Of a stretch of DNA of 64,000 bases, positions 16,721-20,539 are shown one piece after another; the stretch's first letter is position 1, and every line of letters begins with the position of its first letter. The translations under genes and the position numbers were made by a program. The notes beneath the pieces were generated by a model, which was given only the letters and a program-made list of their open reading frames with translations, ran no database searches and was not told where the DNA came from. Source of the DNA: an uncultured Actinomycetota bacterium (GTDB taxonomy: Bacteria > Actinomycetota > Actinomycetes > JAFAQI01); NCBI GenBank assembly GCA_963770565.1, contig CAVYQE010000011.1, positions 544,001 through 608,000 on the forward strand, in the 5' to 3' direction.

Positions 16721-16927
16721 ATGGCGCCGACACTCTCACTTGCCGATCAGGTCGACAAGGTGACGCAGCGGCTGACCGCGGAGTTCTCGGGCAGGGTGCC
16801 CGATCCCGAGGTACGCCGGATCGTGACCGAGGTCTACGGCGAGATGTCCTCAGCGCGGGTCACCCAGTTCGTCCCCGTGCTGCTGGACCGTGGCGTCCGC
16901 GATCGGCTGCGGTCCCGAGCCGGCTGA
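16721..16927 (+). CDS. Three-helix bundle dimerization domain protein (DUF3562-like)
   Basis: RLTAEFSG.V....V..IV......ARVTQFVPVLLDR. Confidence 0.8.
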   Translation: MAPTLSLADQVDKVTQRLTAEFSGRVPDPEVRRIVTEVYGEMSSARVTQFVPVLLDRGVRDRLRSRAG

Positions 16928-17018
16928 GCCGCCGCCCGGATCGCGGGCGCTGATGGGCGACCACCTGCGGTGGCCGCAGCGAAACCTCGCGTTCATAAAC
17001 CCATGCAACCGTGGAGGC

Positions 17019-17462
17019 ATGGAAGGAACACGCAGTCATGAGGCACCGTCGGGTCGACGGATCGCCTTGATCGCCCACGACAACAAGAAGCAGGACATGC
17101 GGGAATGGGCACGATTCAACCTGCACCGCCTGCACGAGCACGAGCTGTTTGCCACCGCGACCACCGGCCGGATCCTGATCGACGAGCTCGGCCTACCGGT
17201 GACCTGTTTCCGTAGCGGCCCGTACGGCGGCGACCAGCAGATCGGCGCCCGGATCGCCGAGGGCGAGATCGACCTGCTGGTTTTCTTCTGGGACCCGCTG
17301 GAGCCGCATCCGCACGACCCGGACGTGAAGGCCCTGCTCCGGATCGCCGTCGTCTGCAATATCCCGGTGGCGTGCAACCGCGCGACCGCCGACTTCATGA
17401 TCTCCTCGCCGCTGATGCATCAGCCGCACCTCGGGATCGTGCCCGATCTCCTGACCGCCTGA
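17019..17462 (+). CDS. mgsA: Methylglyoxal synthase
   Basis: IALIAHDNKK, ATATTG, SGPYGGDQQIG, FFWDPL..HPHDPDVKALLR; GGAGG RBS. Confidence 0.96.
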   Translation: MEGTRSHEAPSGRRIALIAHDNKKQDMREWARFNLHRLHEHELFATATTGRILIDELGLPVTCFRSGPYGGDQQIGARIAEGEIDLLVFFWDPLEPHPHDPDVKALLRIAVVCNIPVACNRATADFMISSPLMHQPHLGIVPDLLTA

Positions 17463-17514
17463 CCGGCTGGACCGCCGACTACACGGCCGAGGGCAAAGCC
17501 GGGTCTGGTCTCAC

Positions 17515-17553
17515 TGTGAACAGTTAGTACTGGACTACTCAGTACGGTTCACA
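17515..17553. repeat. Degenerate copy of REP-like family A palindrome
   Basis: TGTGAAC...GTTCACA; aligns to the reverse complement of the 39151-39198 core with a 3-nt gap. Confidence 0.55.
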
Positions 17554-17687
17554 CCGCGCCTAACGGGCTTGGGCTATTTCGTCATCCTCCGGAGGTCGTT
17601 TCGAGCCTGATGCCGGCGTGGCGCCGGACGCCGCTGCGCCGGACGACTGGCTCAAGCCGTTGCCGCCCAGTGGGAGCACACTCCGGG

Positions 17688-18347
17688 TCAGGACTCCAGA
17701 TAGCGGAGGACGGCGAGCACCCGTCGGTGGTCGGCGTCTGAGGGTGCCAAACCGAGTTTGGCGAAGACGTTGGCGACGTGCTTCTCGACTCCCCGTTCCG
17801 AGATCACAAGGGTGCCGGCGATGGAGCCGTTCGACTTGCCTTCGGCCATCAGGGAAAGGACGTCGCGCTCTCTGGGGGTGAGAGCGTCGAGGCCATCGGT
17901 GCGCCGGGCGGCCTCTCGGAACAGTTGCGTGACGACCTCGGGGTCGAGGGCGGTGCCGCCGGCCGCCACCCGGCTCAGCGCGTCGACGAACTCCCCAACA
18001 TCGCCGACGCGGTCCTTGAGCAGGTATCCGATGCCGGCGGCACCGCGGCTGGATGCCGCTTCAAGGAGCTCGGCGACGTGGCGGGTCTCGATGTACTGAG
18101 AGAAGACCAGCACTCCGGTGCCGGGGTGGTCACGGCGGATGGCGATCGCGGCCCGGATGCCCTCGTCGGTGTAGTCGGGCGGCATTCGCACGTCTACGAC
18201 GGCAGCATCCGGCTCGTGCTCGTCCACGGCCGCTCGCAGCGCCTCGGCATCGCCTACCGCGGCCACCGTCTCGTGTCCCCGGTCGGCGAGGATCTCAACC
18301 AGCCCGGCCCGGATGACTGCGGAGTCTTCGGCGATAACGATCCGCAT
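17688..18347 (-). CDS. NarL/LuxR family response regulator
   Basis: MRIVIAED, DVRMPP, GYLLKD, LTPRERDVL.LMAEGKSN..IA HTH. Confidence 0.95.
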   Translation of the reverse strand: MRIVIAEDSAVIRAGLVEILADRGHETVAAVGDAEALRAAVDEHEPDAAVVDVRMPPDYTDEGIRAAIAIRRDHPGTGVLVFSQYIETRHVAELLEAASSRGAAGIGYLLKDRVGDVGEFVDALSRVAAGGTALDPEVVTQLFREAARRTDGLDALTPRERDVLSLMAEGKSNGSIAGTLVISERGVEKHVANVFAKLGLAPSDADHRRVLAVLRYLES

Positions 18348-18366
18348 TCGAGCTGCTCCTATCGGG

Positions 18367-19260
18367 TCAGACGTGAGAGGGCAGTACGACGGTGACCACC
18401 GTGGGGCCGCCGGCCGGACTTTCGACCTGCAGCCTGCCATCAACTGTCTTGACCCGCTCTGCGAGACCGGCCAGGCCTCCGCCGGGCTCGAGCCGGGCGC
18501 CGCCGGGTCCTTCGTCGCTGACCCGCATCGTCACCAGGCCGGCGTGGTTGAGCACCTCCACCTTGGTATGCTGGGCACCGCTGTGCTTCGCGGCGTTCGT
18601 GAGCAGTTCGGCAGCGCAGAAGTAAGCCATCGTCTCGATGGCAGCGGACGGACGCTCCGGCAGGCCGACGACCAGTTCGACTGGCAGGTCGCTGCGTGCC
18701 ACGAGGCCGGCGAGGGCGGCACCGAGGCCTTCGTCCAGGGCCGGCGGATGGATACCTCTGGCCAGGTCACGCAGTTCGGTGATCGCCTCCATCGCGCCGC
18801 GGCGGGCCGCGGTCACCAGTTCCAGGACCCGGTCGAGATCGGCGCCCCCTGGCCTGGCCGCCGAGGTGTTGAGATGGTCCTGAGCGAGCCCCAGCTTCAT
18901 GACGACAGCGACCATCTGGGCTTGGGCTCCGTCGTGCAGATCCTGCCCGATGCGGCGTAACAGGGCTGCCGCGTCGTCCACCACGACAGCTCGGGATCGT
19001 TGCAGCTCGCGCACGCGCTCGACGTTCTTGGGGGCATCCCGGAGTAGGTTCCAGCGCGGCACCAGGTAGGCGAGCGAGCCGTTCAGCCCGGCCGGCACGA
19101 ACAGGAACACCCCCCACCACTGACCCAAGGCCAGCAACACCGCCCCCCAGACCACGAAACAGACCGCGGCAACCCAGCGCGCGACTGCCACGCCTTTGAC
19201 ATGACGCGCCCCGAACGCCGTGAAGGTGCCCCTGGTGGCCGATGGACCCGCCTCGGTCAT
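18367..19260 (-). CDS. HisKA_3 sensor histidine kinase with two N-terminal TM helices
   Basis: RRIGQDLHDGAQ H-box; ELLTNAAKH, SDEGPGGA, GGGLAGL, SPAGGPT ATPase boxes. Confidence 0.92.
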   Translation of the reverse strand: MTEAGPSATRGTFTAFGARHVKGVAVARWVAAVCFVVWGAVLLALGQWWGVFLFVPAGLNGSLAYLVPRWNLLRDAPKNVERVRELQRSRAVVVDDAAALLRRIGQDLHDGAQAQMVAVVMKLGLAQDHLNTSAARPGGADLDRVLELVTAARRGAMEAITELRDLARGIHPPALDEGLGAALAGLVARSDLPVELVVGLPERPSAAIETMAYFCAAELLTNAAKHSGAQHTKVEVLNHAGLVTMRVSDEGPGGARLEPGGGLAGLAERVKTVDGRLQVESPAGGPTVVTVVLPSHV

Positions 19261-19506
19261 ATCGAGACCTACGTCGAGAGGTTGGCGTTCTTGGGGGCAT
19301 CCCGGAGCAGGTTCCAGCGCGGCACCAGGTAGGCGAGCGAGCCGTTCAGCCCGGCCGGCACGAACAGGAACACCCCCCACCACTGACCCAAGGCCAGCAA
19401 CACCGCCCCCCAGACCACGAAACAGACCGCGGCAACCCAGCGCGCGACTGCCACGCCCTTGACATGACGCGCCCCGAACGCCGTGAAGGTGCCTCTGGTT
19501 GCTGAT
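19023..19506. repeat. 221-bp direct duplication (19023-19243 and 19286-19506)
   Basis: Copies differ at 5 positions by manual alignment, all synonymous on the minus strand. Confidence 0.95.
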
Positions 19507-19550
19507 AGAGCGACGTCGGTCGGTCGCTGATGTTCACTCATGTCGGGCAT
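19269..19550 (-). CDS. Small membrane protein identical to the kinase sensor/TM domain
   Basis: AAAGGAGG RBS before ATG at 19550; 73 aa identical to the kinase N-terminus. Confidence 0.85.
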   Translation of the reverse strand: MPDMSEHQRPTDVALSATRGTFTAFGARHVKGVAVARWVAAVCFVVWGAVLLALGQWWGVFLFVPAGLNGSLAYLVPRWNLLRDAPKNANLST

Positions 19551-19630
19551 CGGACTGCCTCCTTTGATCTTCGGCATCGACCACCTTGGTCGTCCACGGT
19601 TCGATCTTCGTCCCCAACGAGCCACAGATT

Positions 19631-19674
19631 CCACCGTGCGAGCACCCGAATCCGGGGTACGGCTAGCACGGTGG
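19631..19674. promoter_or_regulatory. Inverted repeat, candidate response-regulator operator
   Basis: CCACCGTGC-N26-GCACGGTGG about 80 nt upstream of the 19550 start. Confidence 0.4.
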
Positions 19675-19840
19675 TCATCGCCTGACATAAGCATCGAACC
19701 GGGAAGTGCGCCCGCCCATTTACACCGGCTTCCGGACGCTGCCGCCAGACCGATCGGTCAGTGAATGCCGTTCTAGGGCACTTGAACTGACGCTCTGATG
19801 GGTTGTTGGGCCTGGGATGAGCGCCGGAGTCCGGATCGAG

Positions 19841-20539
19841 TCAGTGGGGCTCGCTGACCGCCTCGGTCTCGAAGCGGTAGCCCATCCCCGTCTCGGTCAG
19901 CAGGTAGCGCGGGCGCGAGGGGTCGGGTTCGAGCTTGCGCCGCAGCTGCGCGACGTACACCCGCAGGTAGTTGACCTCGGTGGAGTACGCCGGGCCCCAG
20001 ACGTCGTGCAGCAGCTGGCGCTGCGTGACCAGCTTGCCGGGATTGCGGACCAGCACCTCGAGCAGCTGCCACTGCGTCGGCGTGAGTTTGATCTCGCCGT
20101 CCGAGCGGGTCCGCACTCGCTTGGCGGCGAGGTCGATGGTGAAGTCGTCAGTGGTGATCACCGGCGCGTCCTGGGCCGGCGCGGCCCGCCGGACCGCCGC
20201 GCGCAGTCGCGCGAGCAGCTCGTCCATCCCGAACGGCTTGGTGACGTAGTCGTCGGCACCGGCGTCGAGGGCGGCGACCTTGGTTACCTCGTTCTCGCGT
20301 GCCGACAAGACGATGATCGGTGCACTCGACCAGCCGCGAATGCCGCGAATCACCTCGGCTCCATCCATGTCGGGCAGGCCGAGGTCGACGATCACGACGT
20401 CCGGCCGCTCGCGGGCGACCGTGGCGAGCCCGCTGATCCCGTCACTTGCGGTCTTCACGTCGTACGAGCGGGCGGTGAGGTTGATCCGGAGGGCGCGGCA
20501 GATCGCGGCATCGTCGTCGATCACGACCACCTTGGTCAC
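19841..20539 (-). CDS. kdpE: KdpE-like OmpR family response regulator
   Basis: DLGLPDMDG.EVI..IRGWS, KVAALDAGADDYVTKPFG, YLRVYVAQLRRKLEPDPSRPRYLLTE. Confidence 0.9.
   Translation of the reverse strand: MTKVVVIDDDAAICRALRINLTARSYDVKTASDGISGLATVARERPDVVIVDLGLPDMDGAEVIRGIRGWSSAPIIVLSARENEVTKVAALDAGADDYVTKPFGMDELLARLRAAVRRAAPAQDAPVITTDDFTIDLAAKRVRTRSDGEIKLTPTQWQLLEVLVRNPGKLVTQRQLLHDVWGPAYSTEVNYLRVYVAQLRRKLEPDPSRPRYLLTETGMGYRFETEAVSEPH

Follow-up and report, generated by a model that had tools for sequence, protein, structure and literature searches.

A three-gene signalling cassette of Actinomycetota encodes a separate copy of its histidine kinase's predicted membrane sensor domain

Results

A small open reading frame and the 5' end of a kinase gene are two copies of one sequence

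The DNA stretch analysed here (hereafter the window: 64,000 nucleotides (nt) of contig CAVYQE010000011.1 from an uncultured soil Actinomycetota bacterium) carries a compact 2.0-kb cassette at positions 17665-19673, the limits of which were set by blastn likeness boundaries against other loci. All its features lie on the minus strand: a leader, a small open reading frame (ORF), a sensor histidine kinase gene, a response regulator gene and a 3' hairpin. The small ORF (19269-19550; ATG at 19550, stop codon at 19271-19269) encodes 93 amino acids (aa): a variable N-tail is followed by a juxtamembrane segment and two hydrophobic helices with a GQWWG motif between them, and the protein ends in a short variable C-tail, without any kinase domains. 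It is separated by 8 nt from the kinase gene (18367-19260), the 297-aa product of which starts with the same membrane domain and continues with HisKA_3 (residues 102-175) and HATPase_c (residues 215-295) domains identified with Pfam; a spacer of 16 nt then leads to the gene of a NarL/LuxR-type response regulator of 220 aa (17688-18350), in which Pfam models identify receiver and GerE domains.

The likeness between the first two genes comes from a direct repeat detected by a repeat search, with one copy within the small ORF (19286-19521) and the other at the 5' end of the kinase gene (19023-19258); the copies are 96% identical at a spacing of 263 nt, and Tandem Repeats Finder (TRF) reports a period of 263 with 97% matches. 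Between them lies a linker (19259-19285) comprising the stop codon TAG of the small ORF (19271-19269), 8 nt and the first base of the kinase ATG (19260-19258). The repeat core encodes the same 73 residues (SATRGTF...RDAPKN) in both proteins, and its five DNA differences (TCG/TCA, GCC/GCA, AGG/AGA, AAA/AAG and CTA/CTG) are all synonymous, so that the alignment bears out both of these observations of an earlier note on this DNA. With 50.7 synonymous and 138.3 non-synonymous sites in the core (Nei-Gojobori counts), the chance that five of five differences are synonymous is about 0.0014 under neutrality and about 0.035 at an omega of 0.35. A scan for terminator-like structures returned the same hairpin and T-rich run in both copies (19455-19428 and 19192-19165, minus strand), at the codons for GVAVARWVAAVCFV; this is probably a by-product of the coding sequence.

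Since the window comes from a metagenome-assembled genome, a single copy that was wrongly doubled during assembly had to be considered. A public-run contig of 151 nt matches positions 19158-19308 with 0 mismatches, extending from the 5' side of the kinase copy across the linker into the small-ORF copy, of which it covers the final 23 nt; none of the public-run pieces spans both copies. The two copies, which are the only ones found by a search of their own genome, differ at five sites and have different flanks and a linker between them, and the same layout with the same linker recurs in 46 unique, independent loci (see below). An assembly artefact, which the earlier note had also argued against, can therefore be set aside as having a negligible probability.

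The kinase and regulator belong to common classes and the small protein matches no family model

The kinase matches HisKA_3 (PF07730, E-value 2.6e-09, 37.9 bits for a cut-off of 24) and HATPase_c (PF02518, E-value 3.5e-07, 31.1 bits for a cut-off of 26.4), and its H109-D110-G111 motif, N222 and G-box residues are invariant among 26 aligned kinases. The regulator matches the receiver (PF00072, E-value 4.5e-13) and GerE (PF00196, E-value 6e-15) models. On these matches, the two proteins are ordinary members of the HisKA_3 and NarL classes; their best NCBIfam matches (MctS, LiaS and MadR) stay far under the cut-offs. The small protein has no Pfam-A or NCBIfam match at an E-value of 0.01 or less, and none of 17 aligned relatives matches the LiaF family at an E-value of 1 or less. 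It belongs to a set of 171 database clusters of about 89-95 aa.

The domain shared by both proteins comprises about 39 hydrophobic residues interrupted by GQWWG, with positive charges flanking both sides and with five invariant polar or small residues (C43, G55, G59, N69 and G70, in small-protein numbering). C43 is found in 27 small proteins and 26 kinases; a glycine replaces it in the kinase copy of one congener, G001 (L004), the small copy of which keeps the cysteine. This composition fits a predicted two-helix hairpin with both ends in the cytoplasm, as in intramembrane-sensing kinases. A complex prediction for kinase residues 1-175 with the small protein (score 0.00, mark 0.32) speaks neither for nor against a pairing of the two.

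The layout recurs in many loci and stems from an old duplication

Scans of genome and metagenome contigs gave 33 and 56 loci, respectively (89 in total), and three loci of the window's genus brought the collection to 92. Six-frame ORFs of all 92 were searched with a hidden Markov model of the small protein. A small ORF, a kinase gene and a NarL-type regulator gene were found together in 52 of these loci (46 of them unique), forming the conserved three-gene unit for which the earlier note had proposed to search. A further 17 loci have a single fused copy, in which the N-tail of the small ORF runs directly into the kinase, and the remaining 23 show a small ORF only (7), a kinase copy only (7) or fragments (9), mostly due to contig-end cuts and in a few cases to frame errors.

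Two congeners, G004 and G001, carry the same small ORF, kinase and regulator. Matches were obtained in 4 of 36 genomes of the family and in 3 of 401 genomes of a class sample, all within the window's genus; in the class sample and a phylum sample of another 401 genomes, the domain was seen only in this genus, apart from two remote two-helix ORFs that do not adjoin kinases. A profile search returned distant standalone relatives of about 100 aa with 36-46% identity and also distant kinases with the domain at their N-terminus (P0125, P0128, P0130, P0131, P0133 and others; P0129 and P0154), and the pairing of small ORF and kinase may be older and wider than the clade studied here. At locus L032, likeness to the window ends at position 18728, inside the kinase gene, no regulator is present within 7.5 kb and the kinase sits on a very long tree branch; this cassette may be truncated or disrupted.

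Among the 46 unique two-copy loci, the start-to-start period of the copies is 263 nt in 25 loci, 262 nt in 13 and takes other values in 8 (range 247-266). It is divisible by three in none of them, so the two copies are always read in different frames. All two-copy loci have in common the linker ...CTCTCGGCG TAG GTCTCGAT ATG ACC..., and the presence of one homologous linker throughout implies that the duplication happened once and is old. The alignments show that in every two-copy locus the 5' end of a gene for an intramembrane-type HisKA_3 kinase has been partially duplicated in tandem, leaving an upstream ORF for the juxtamembrane segment and membrane helices only. Likeness extends somewhat past the core on both sides: upstream, MT(D/G)AGPSA of the kinase aligns with STGxAPSA of the small ORF, and downstream, the last six codons of the small ORF match the VERVRE codons of the kinase with an identity of 0.42 in register, compared with 0.18-0.35 at other registers. 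Since the tails are alike in register, the direction would be from kinase to small ORF, a weak hint that the small ORF derives from a truncated kinase 5' end and is not a captured foreign gene. The age of the arrangement and this tail likeness do not agree with the earlier proposal of a kinase that recently captured its target gene as a sensor.

The kinase appears to be translated by coupling to the small ORF

A start codon could be assigned to the small ORF in 45 of the 46 two-copy loci, and all 45 have a Shine-Dalgarno (SD) match of 5-7 nt before it; in the window, this ribosome-binding site is AAAGGAGG (19565-19558). The SD match before the kinase is absent in 17 of these loci and only 4 nt long in the other 28, and the kinase start lies 7-8 nt past the stop codon of the small ORF in 41 of 45 loci (range -4 to +10). 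As the earlier note had seen, the small ORF is the first gene of the unit and the one with the strong ribosome-binding site. From the short stop-to-start gap and the lack of a good ribosome-binding site for the kinase we infer termination-reinitiation, and the arrangement suggests that the kinase is translationally coupled to the small ORF.

Two copies on one strand that lie only 7-8 nt apart could in principle be joined by a programmed frameshift or read-through into one kinase with four helices, of which the small ORF would encode the first part. The frame offset between the copies is, however, +2 in 30 loci and +1 in 16, so that one conserved shift cannot serve all of them, and a stop codon followed by a conserved ATG or GTG start separates the copies in 45 of 45 loci. 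The mixed offsets argue against such a fusion, which we regard as very improbable.

Upstream of the small ORF lies a leader of 122 nt (19551-19673, delineated from sequence and fold) that contains the inverted repeat mentioned by the earlier note, with perfect 9-nt arms (19674-19666 and 19639-19631), an inner palindrome and the ribosome-binding site. Its sequence is conserved in an alignment of 41 loci. RNAalifold detected no covariation or compensatory changes for the long inverted repeat in these 41 leaders, and variants of the 3' arm carry unpaired changes; an RNA switch in the leader is thus unsupported and a protein-binding site is favoured instead. A scan of four loci against Rfam returned a tRNA only, and a sigma-70 promoter scan returned 0 sites.

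The cassette is a sharply bounded unit found in unrelated genomic contexts

In 48 of the 91 other loci, likeness to the window starts at 19668-19676 and ends at 17660-17692, the others being cut by contig ends. The 3' end of the unit, as placed by the right boundaries of 47 loci, coincides with a short conserved hairpin (17666-17687) directly 3' of the regulator stop codon. Of the 33 loci that span at least 6 kb, 31 have the regulator, with 84-93% aa identity, and none has the neighbours seen in the window (ppk, a DUF3562-like ORF, mgsA and kdpD). The flanks fall into 32 clusters among 36 loci upstream and into 28 clusters among 31 loci downstream.

Comparisons within the genus gave a similar picture. 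In G001, ppk is joined to kdpE with a gap of 20 nt (an empty site) and the cassette lies elsewhere in the genome, while in G004 about 4.8 kb of other DNA separates ppk from kdpE and the cassette is on another contig. The closest congener, G003 (92-94% nt identity in the flanks, 92% completeness), has no cassette and keeps mgsA, followed at the site by two unrelated ORFs. Ppk of G004 is 88% identical to that of the window, and the Ppk proteins of four other carriers are 62, 57, 49 and 43% identical to it, whereas the cassettes of these four carriers share 85-92% DNA identity with that of the window. Since the cassette is far more conserved than Ppk and sits in unrelated genomic contexts, it must spread horizontally, and the comparisons show a sharply bounded 2.0-kb unit with the distribution of a horizontally transferred element.

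No mobility gene was found in the unit, which holds three genes only. The two junctions of the window share no direct or inverted repeats of at least 9 nt (two 8-mers are within chance expectation), and no target-site duplications beyond chance were detected there.

Several further observations concern the surroundings of the cassette. The ppk-kdpE interval is variable in the genus (window positions 16928-19855 compared with L135/L131 of G001 and L129/L134 of G003), G000 having mgsA plus the cassette. The ORF of 68 aa between ppk and mgsA (16721-16927, plus strand) scores just below the model cut-offs for Phosphatase-like_N (26.8 against 27 bits) and DUF3562 (25.3 against 26.3 bits). Of 42 loci scanned, 7 have tRNA genes no farther than about 1.5 kb from the cassette (L039:4643-4716, L041:3440-3596, L056:2926-3136 and L044:2398-2471, with L032 and L050 also among them). 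Two loci share a Gly-Pro pair upstream, and in one locus the regulator is immediately followed by a tRNA-Val; such neighbours may hint at island insertion sites. Many loci (L033, L034, L037, L041, L044-L046, L050, L055, L056, L060 and others) have a conserved stretch of 110-170 nt upstream of the leader that is absent from the window and lies about 60-170 nt 5' of the cassette boundary; in L033, L034 and L120, about 170 nt separate the points matching window positions 19678 and 19673. A candidate divergent ORF in this stretch, which begins with ATG on the other strand, was discarded, because its frame does not stay open across loci (57 and 88 aa in two of them, less in others).

The two copies are homogenised within loci and each is constrained

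We compared a core of 62 codons between the 46 unique two-copy loci, using the proportions of synonymous (pS) and non-synonymous (pN) differences. Within a locus, the two copies differ with a median pS of 0.10 and pN of 0.018, corresponding to 2 of 62 residues. Between loci, small copies differ from each other at a pS of 0.28 and a pN of 0.11 (13 residues), kinase copies at 0.27 and 0.107 (12 residues), and small from kinase copies at 0.276 and 0.109 (13 residues), without any type-specific divergence between small and kinase copies in the 46 loci. The nearest or tied-nearest DNA relative of a copy is its own partner in 63 of 92 cases. In G004, central membrane codons are nearly identical in DNA and carry genome-specific residues, while synonymous differences are found in the flanks; the identical tract extends to ...LLRDAPKN in some loci and ends at ...PRWN in others. 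Altogether, these comparisons show that the copies have been homogenised recurrently by gene conversion, in patchy tracts.

The earlier note had described the small copy as kept identical at the protein level. We find instead that the copies are identical in this genome because the last conversion was recent (pS about 0.04-0.06), with 0 to 16 of 62 residues differing per pair across the loci. The pooled within-locus pN/pS is 0.34, compared with about 0.39 between loci, which gives no indication of selection for identity as such.

Selection on each copy was then estimated separately. In the core, pN/pS amounts to 0.39 for small copies and 0.38 for kinase copies. Within-locus differences were polarised by treating the state found in most other loci as ancestral, which assigned 95 non-synonymous and 92 synonymous changes to the small copy and 81 and 102 to the kinase copy (42 and 40, and 25 and 44, respectively, under a stricter rule), for an unconstrained expectation of about 73% non-synonymous changes derived from Nei-Gojobori site counts. 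Since changes that arise between conversions are shifted towards synonymous ones, the core of the small copy is selected as a protein: by these counts, it is under purifying selection of its own (omega about 0.38), slightly weaker than that on the kinase copy. Both copies are thus constrained as coding sequence, as the earlier note had suspected.

These data also bear on the idea of a matched decoy or effector, according to which the free sensor copy would absorb the kinase's membrane-borne stimulus (a membrane-active compound, for instance), protecting the cell and switching the kinase off, with gene conversion keeping decoy and sensor matched. The cassette has no other candidate effector and moves among unrelated genomes, where its own leader is the only guaranteed target; its small ORF is predicted from its SD match to be the best-translated gene, and truncated-receptor decoys are described in animals in the part of the literature consulted (PMC13421766). 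Selection for identity past ordinary constraint is, however, not apparent, pairs that differ at 9-16 of 62 residues persist (L035, L040, L047, L095, L097, L099, L111 and L116), no ligand is known and the regulator could equally control host genes. We therefore consider a decoy role unlikely.

Single-copy and extra-copy forms occur among two-copy loci

To place the 17 single-copy loci, a neighbour-joining tree of kinase bodies was built from 55 sequences (40 two-copy, 13 single-copy and 2 undetermined), after removing six exact duplicates and every sequence in which fewer than 205 residues follow the domain. In this tree, single-copy forms are scattered among two-copy forms: L086 lies by L108, L037 by L041, L069 by L066 and L073 by L087. 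Single-copy L065 and two-copy L066 have common flanks, the kinase body of L065 being left out of the tree as an exact duplicate of that of another locus. Such single-copy forms are as homologous deletion between the repeats would give, or they could come from assemblies in which near-identical repeats were collapsed into one. If genuine, they imply a recurrent loss that simple recombination cannot reverse, and the fact that the two-copy form persists suggests that it is favoured.

Copy number can also be higher. L059 (4037-4961) contains an extra, perfect duplication of 474 nt (a 300-nt repeat at a spacing of 474) that results in three or more copies of the sensor segment, while L053, its sister with the same flanks, has the normal two; the extra copy stems from a misassembly or from an unequal exchange that took place very recently.

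The decoy idea can be extended to a mobile module that senses and titrates at once. The free sensor domain would be the only dependable output of the cassette in a new host and would titrate the stimulus of the kinase, conversion would keep the specificities of decoy and sensor matched, and unequal recombination between one, two or more repeats would act as a heritable dial on the decoy-to-sensor ratio. We offer this scenario as a speculation and think it rather improbable.

Discussion

The cassette is a real, conserved and mobile three-gene unit and a new variant of three-component signalling. The explanation that best accounts for the data as a whole is that of an old duplication of a kinase 5' end, homogenised by conversion and carried on a mobile unit, whose small protein serves as an accessory membrane partner of the kinase; taken as a whole, we would put about as much weight for this account as against it, and such a partnership is the most likely role of the small protein as far as its sequence can tell. 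With the only strong ribosome-binding site located before the small ORF, translation of the kinase would depend on coupling, and at least as much small protein as kinase would be produced. The small protein would insert as a hairpin with both ends in the cytoplasm, and would pack against the identical membrane domain of the kinase or compete for what that domain senses in the membrane, thereby setting kinase activity in the manner of LiaF or MgrB, although it is unrelated to either. The leader palindrome would be a likely operator for autoregulation.

Several points weigh against this account. AlphaFold2 models the small protein, as a monomer, with one long helix and at low confidence (predicted local distance difference test 68.9, predicted template modelling score 0.33), and since this model is uninformative, the hairpin topology is drawn from the charge distribution only. 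Constraint on the small ORF is confined to the shared core: its private tails evolve almost neutrally (pN/pS of 0.97 for the N-tail and 1.24 for the C-tail), and the kinase's own continuation past the shared domain has a pN/pS of 0.14. Part of the constraint on the small core could be borrowed from the kinase via conversion, against which the polarised changes argue, and recombination between alleles could blur the polarisation itself. The neighbour-joining tree carries no support values. The 17 single-copy loci count against the account in either case: if real, they indicate that the kinase can work without a separate small protein, and if they instead reflect short-read assemblies in which the repeats collapsed, the argument from deletion no longer holds. 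Finally, the claim of horizontal transfer rests on one housekeeping marker in four genomes.

The near-neutral tails are what one would expect of a rival explanation, in which the small ORF is a relic that has no protein function and survives as a carrier of the promoter, of the sole good ribosome-binding site and of a start codon, the kinase relying on ribosomes that terminate 7-8 nt upstream and conversion from the selected kinase copy keeping the relic's core clean. The SD match of the kinase, which never exceeds 4 nt, the tightly conserved stop-to-start gap, the frequency of conversion and the existence of fused single-copy forms fit such a leader ORF as well. Against it, the changes acquired by the small copy since the last conversion are only 51% non-synonymous (95 of 187), close to the 44% of the kinase copy (81 of 183) and below the share expected without constraint. 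Moreover, a mere leader could shrink, yet all 171 database clusters keep the length given above and no two-copy locus has a shortened core, and the irreversible loss to a single copy has not displaced the two-copy form. We consider the relic explanation a serious but somewhat unlikely alternative to an accessory partner of the kinase.

Accessory membrane proteins that control sensor kinases are already known, and the new element here is that such a protein would be a twin of the sensor domain. With partners that range from identical to different at 16 of 62 residues, the family constitutes a natural experiment on the pairing of membrane sensor domains. It is also a clean example, in bacteria, of a gene fragment evolving in concert with the gene it came from, and of a compact signalling unit that passes between distant Actinomycetota with no visible mobility gene. 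If the twin does modulate or decoy the kinase, this would represent a simple design principle for tuning two-component signalling.

The closest parallels are the LiaFSR and VraTSR systems of the envelope stress response in Firmicutes, in which, as proposed here, the gene of an accessory membrane protein is followed by those of a HisKA_3 kinase with a minimal membrane sensor and of a NarL-type regulator. LiaF is a negative regulator of its kinase, according to the sections consulted of two papers (PMC3543457, PMC7191749). Judged against LiaFSR, with its accessory gene upstream and its two-helix sensor, the order and spacing of the genes fit here, the topology being derived from hydrophobic stretches and flanking positive charges only. 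In contrast, the small protein is no relative of LiaF or VraT and is instead a paralogous duplicate of the sensor in the adjoining kinase. That kinase reaches only 36.3 bits against the LiaS model (NF052531, cut-off 450), and no liaIH-like target genes are attached.

MgrB and SafA, which act on PhoQ, and ScrA, which acts on SaeS, are short membrane proteins that influence a kinase within the membrane, as we propose here; in the parts of the literature consulted, small membrane proteins are described as acting on kinases, some of them in feedback (PMC2789325, PMC12239555). These proteins have a single helix, are unrelated to the kinase and are encoded elsewhere in the regulon, whereas the protein described here is a twin of the sensor domain, its gene opens the apparent operon that also holds the kinase gene, and the two copies exchange sequence by conversion. 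A word search of a 2025 review of small membrane proteins returned neither 'duplication' nor 'decoy' (PMC12648545), and in the literature searched, supplementary files aside, we found no report of a kinase whose own sensor domain, made as a separate and translationally coupled protein, serves as its accessory protein. As for inactive kinase versions, the ChrS pseudokinase of Corynebacterium glutamicum, as presented in the portion of the report consulted, alters signalling and forms heterodimers in two-hybrid assays (PMC9491836). That variant arose in laboratory evolution, keeps the dimerisation domain and replaces the kinase, while the cassette has a natural separate gene for the membrane part only, next to an intact kinase.

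The behaviour of the two copies resembles the concerted evolution of duplicated genes, in that paralogues are closer within a genome than orthologues are between genomes, synonymous sites included. The tufA and tufB genes are an example of such evolution by gene conversion in bacteria. Unlike in the usual cases, the partners here are a fragment and the whole of one gene, read in different frames and placed 263 nt apart.

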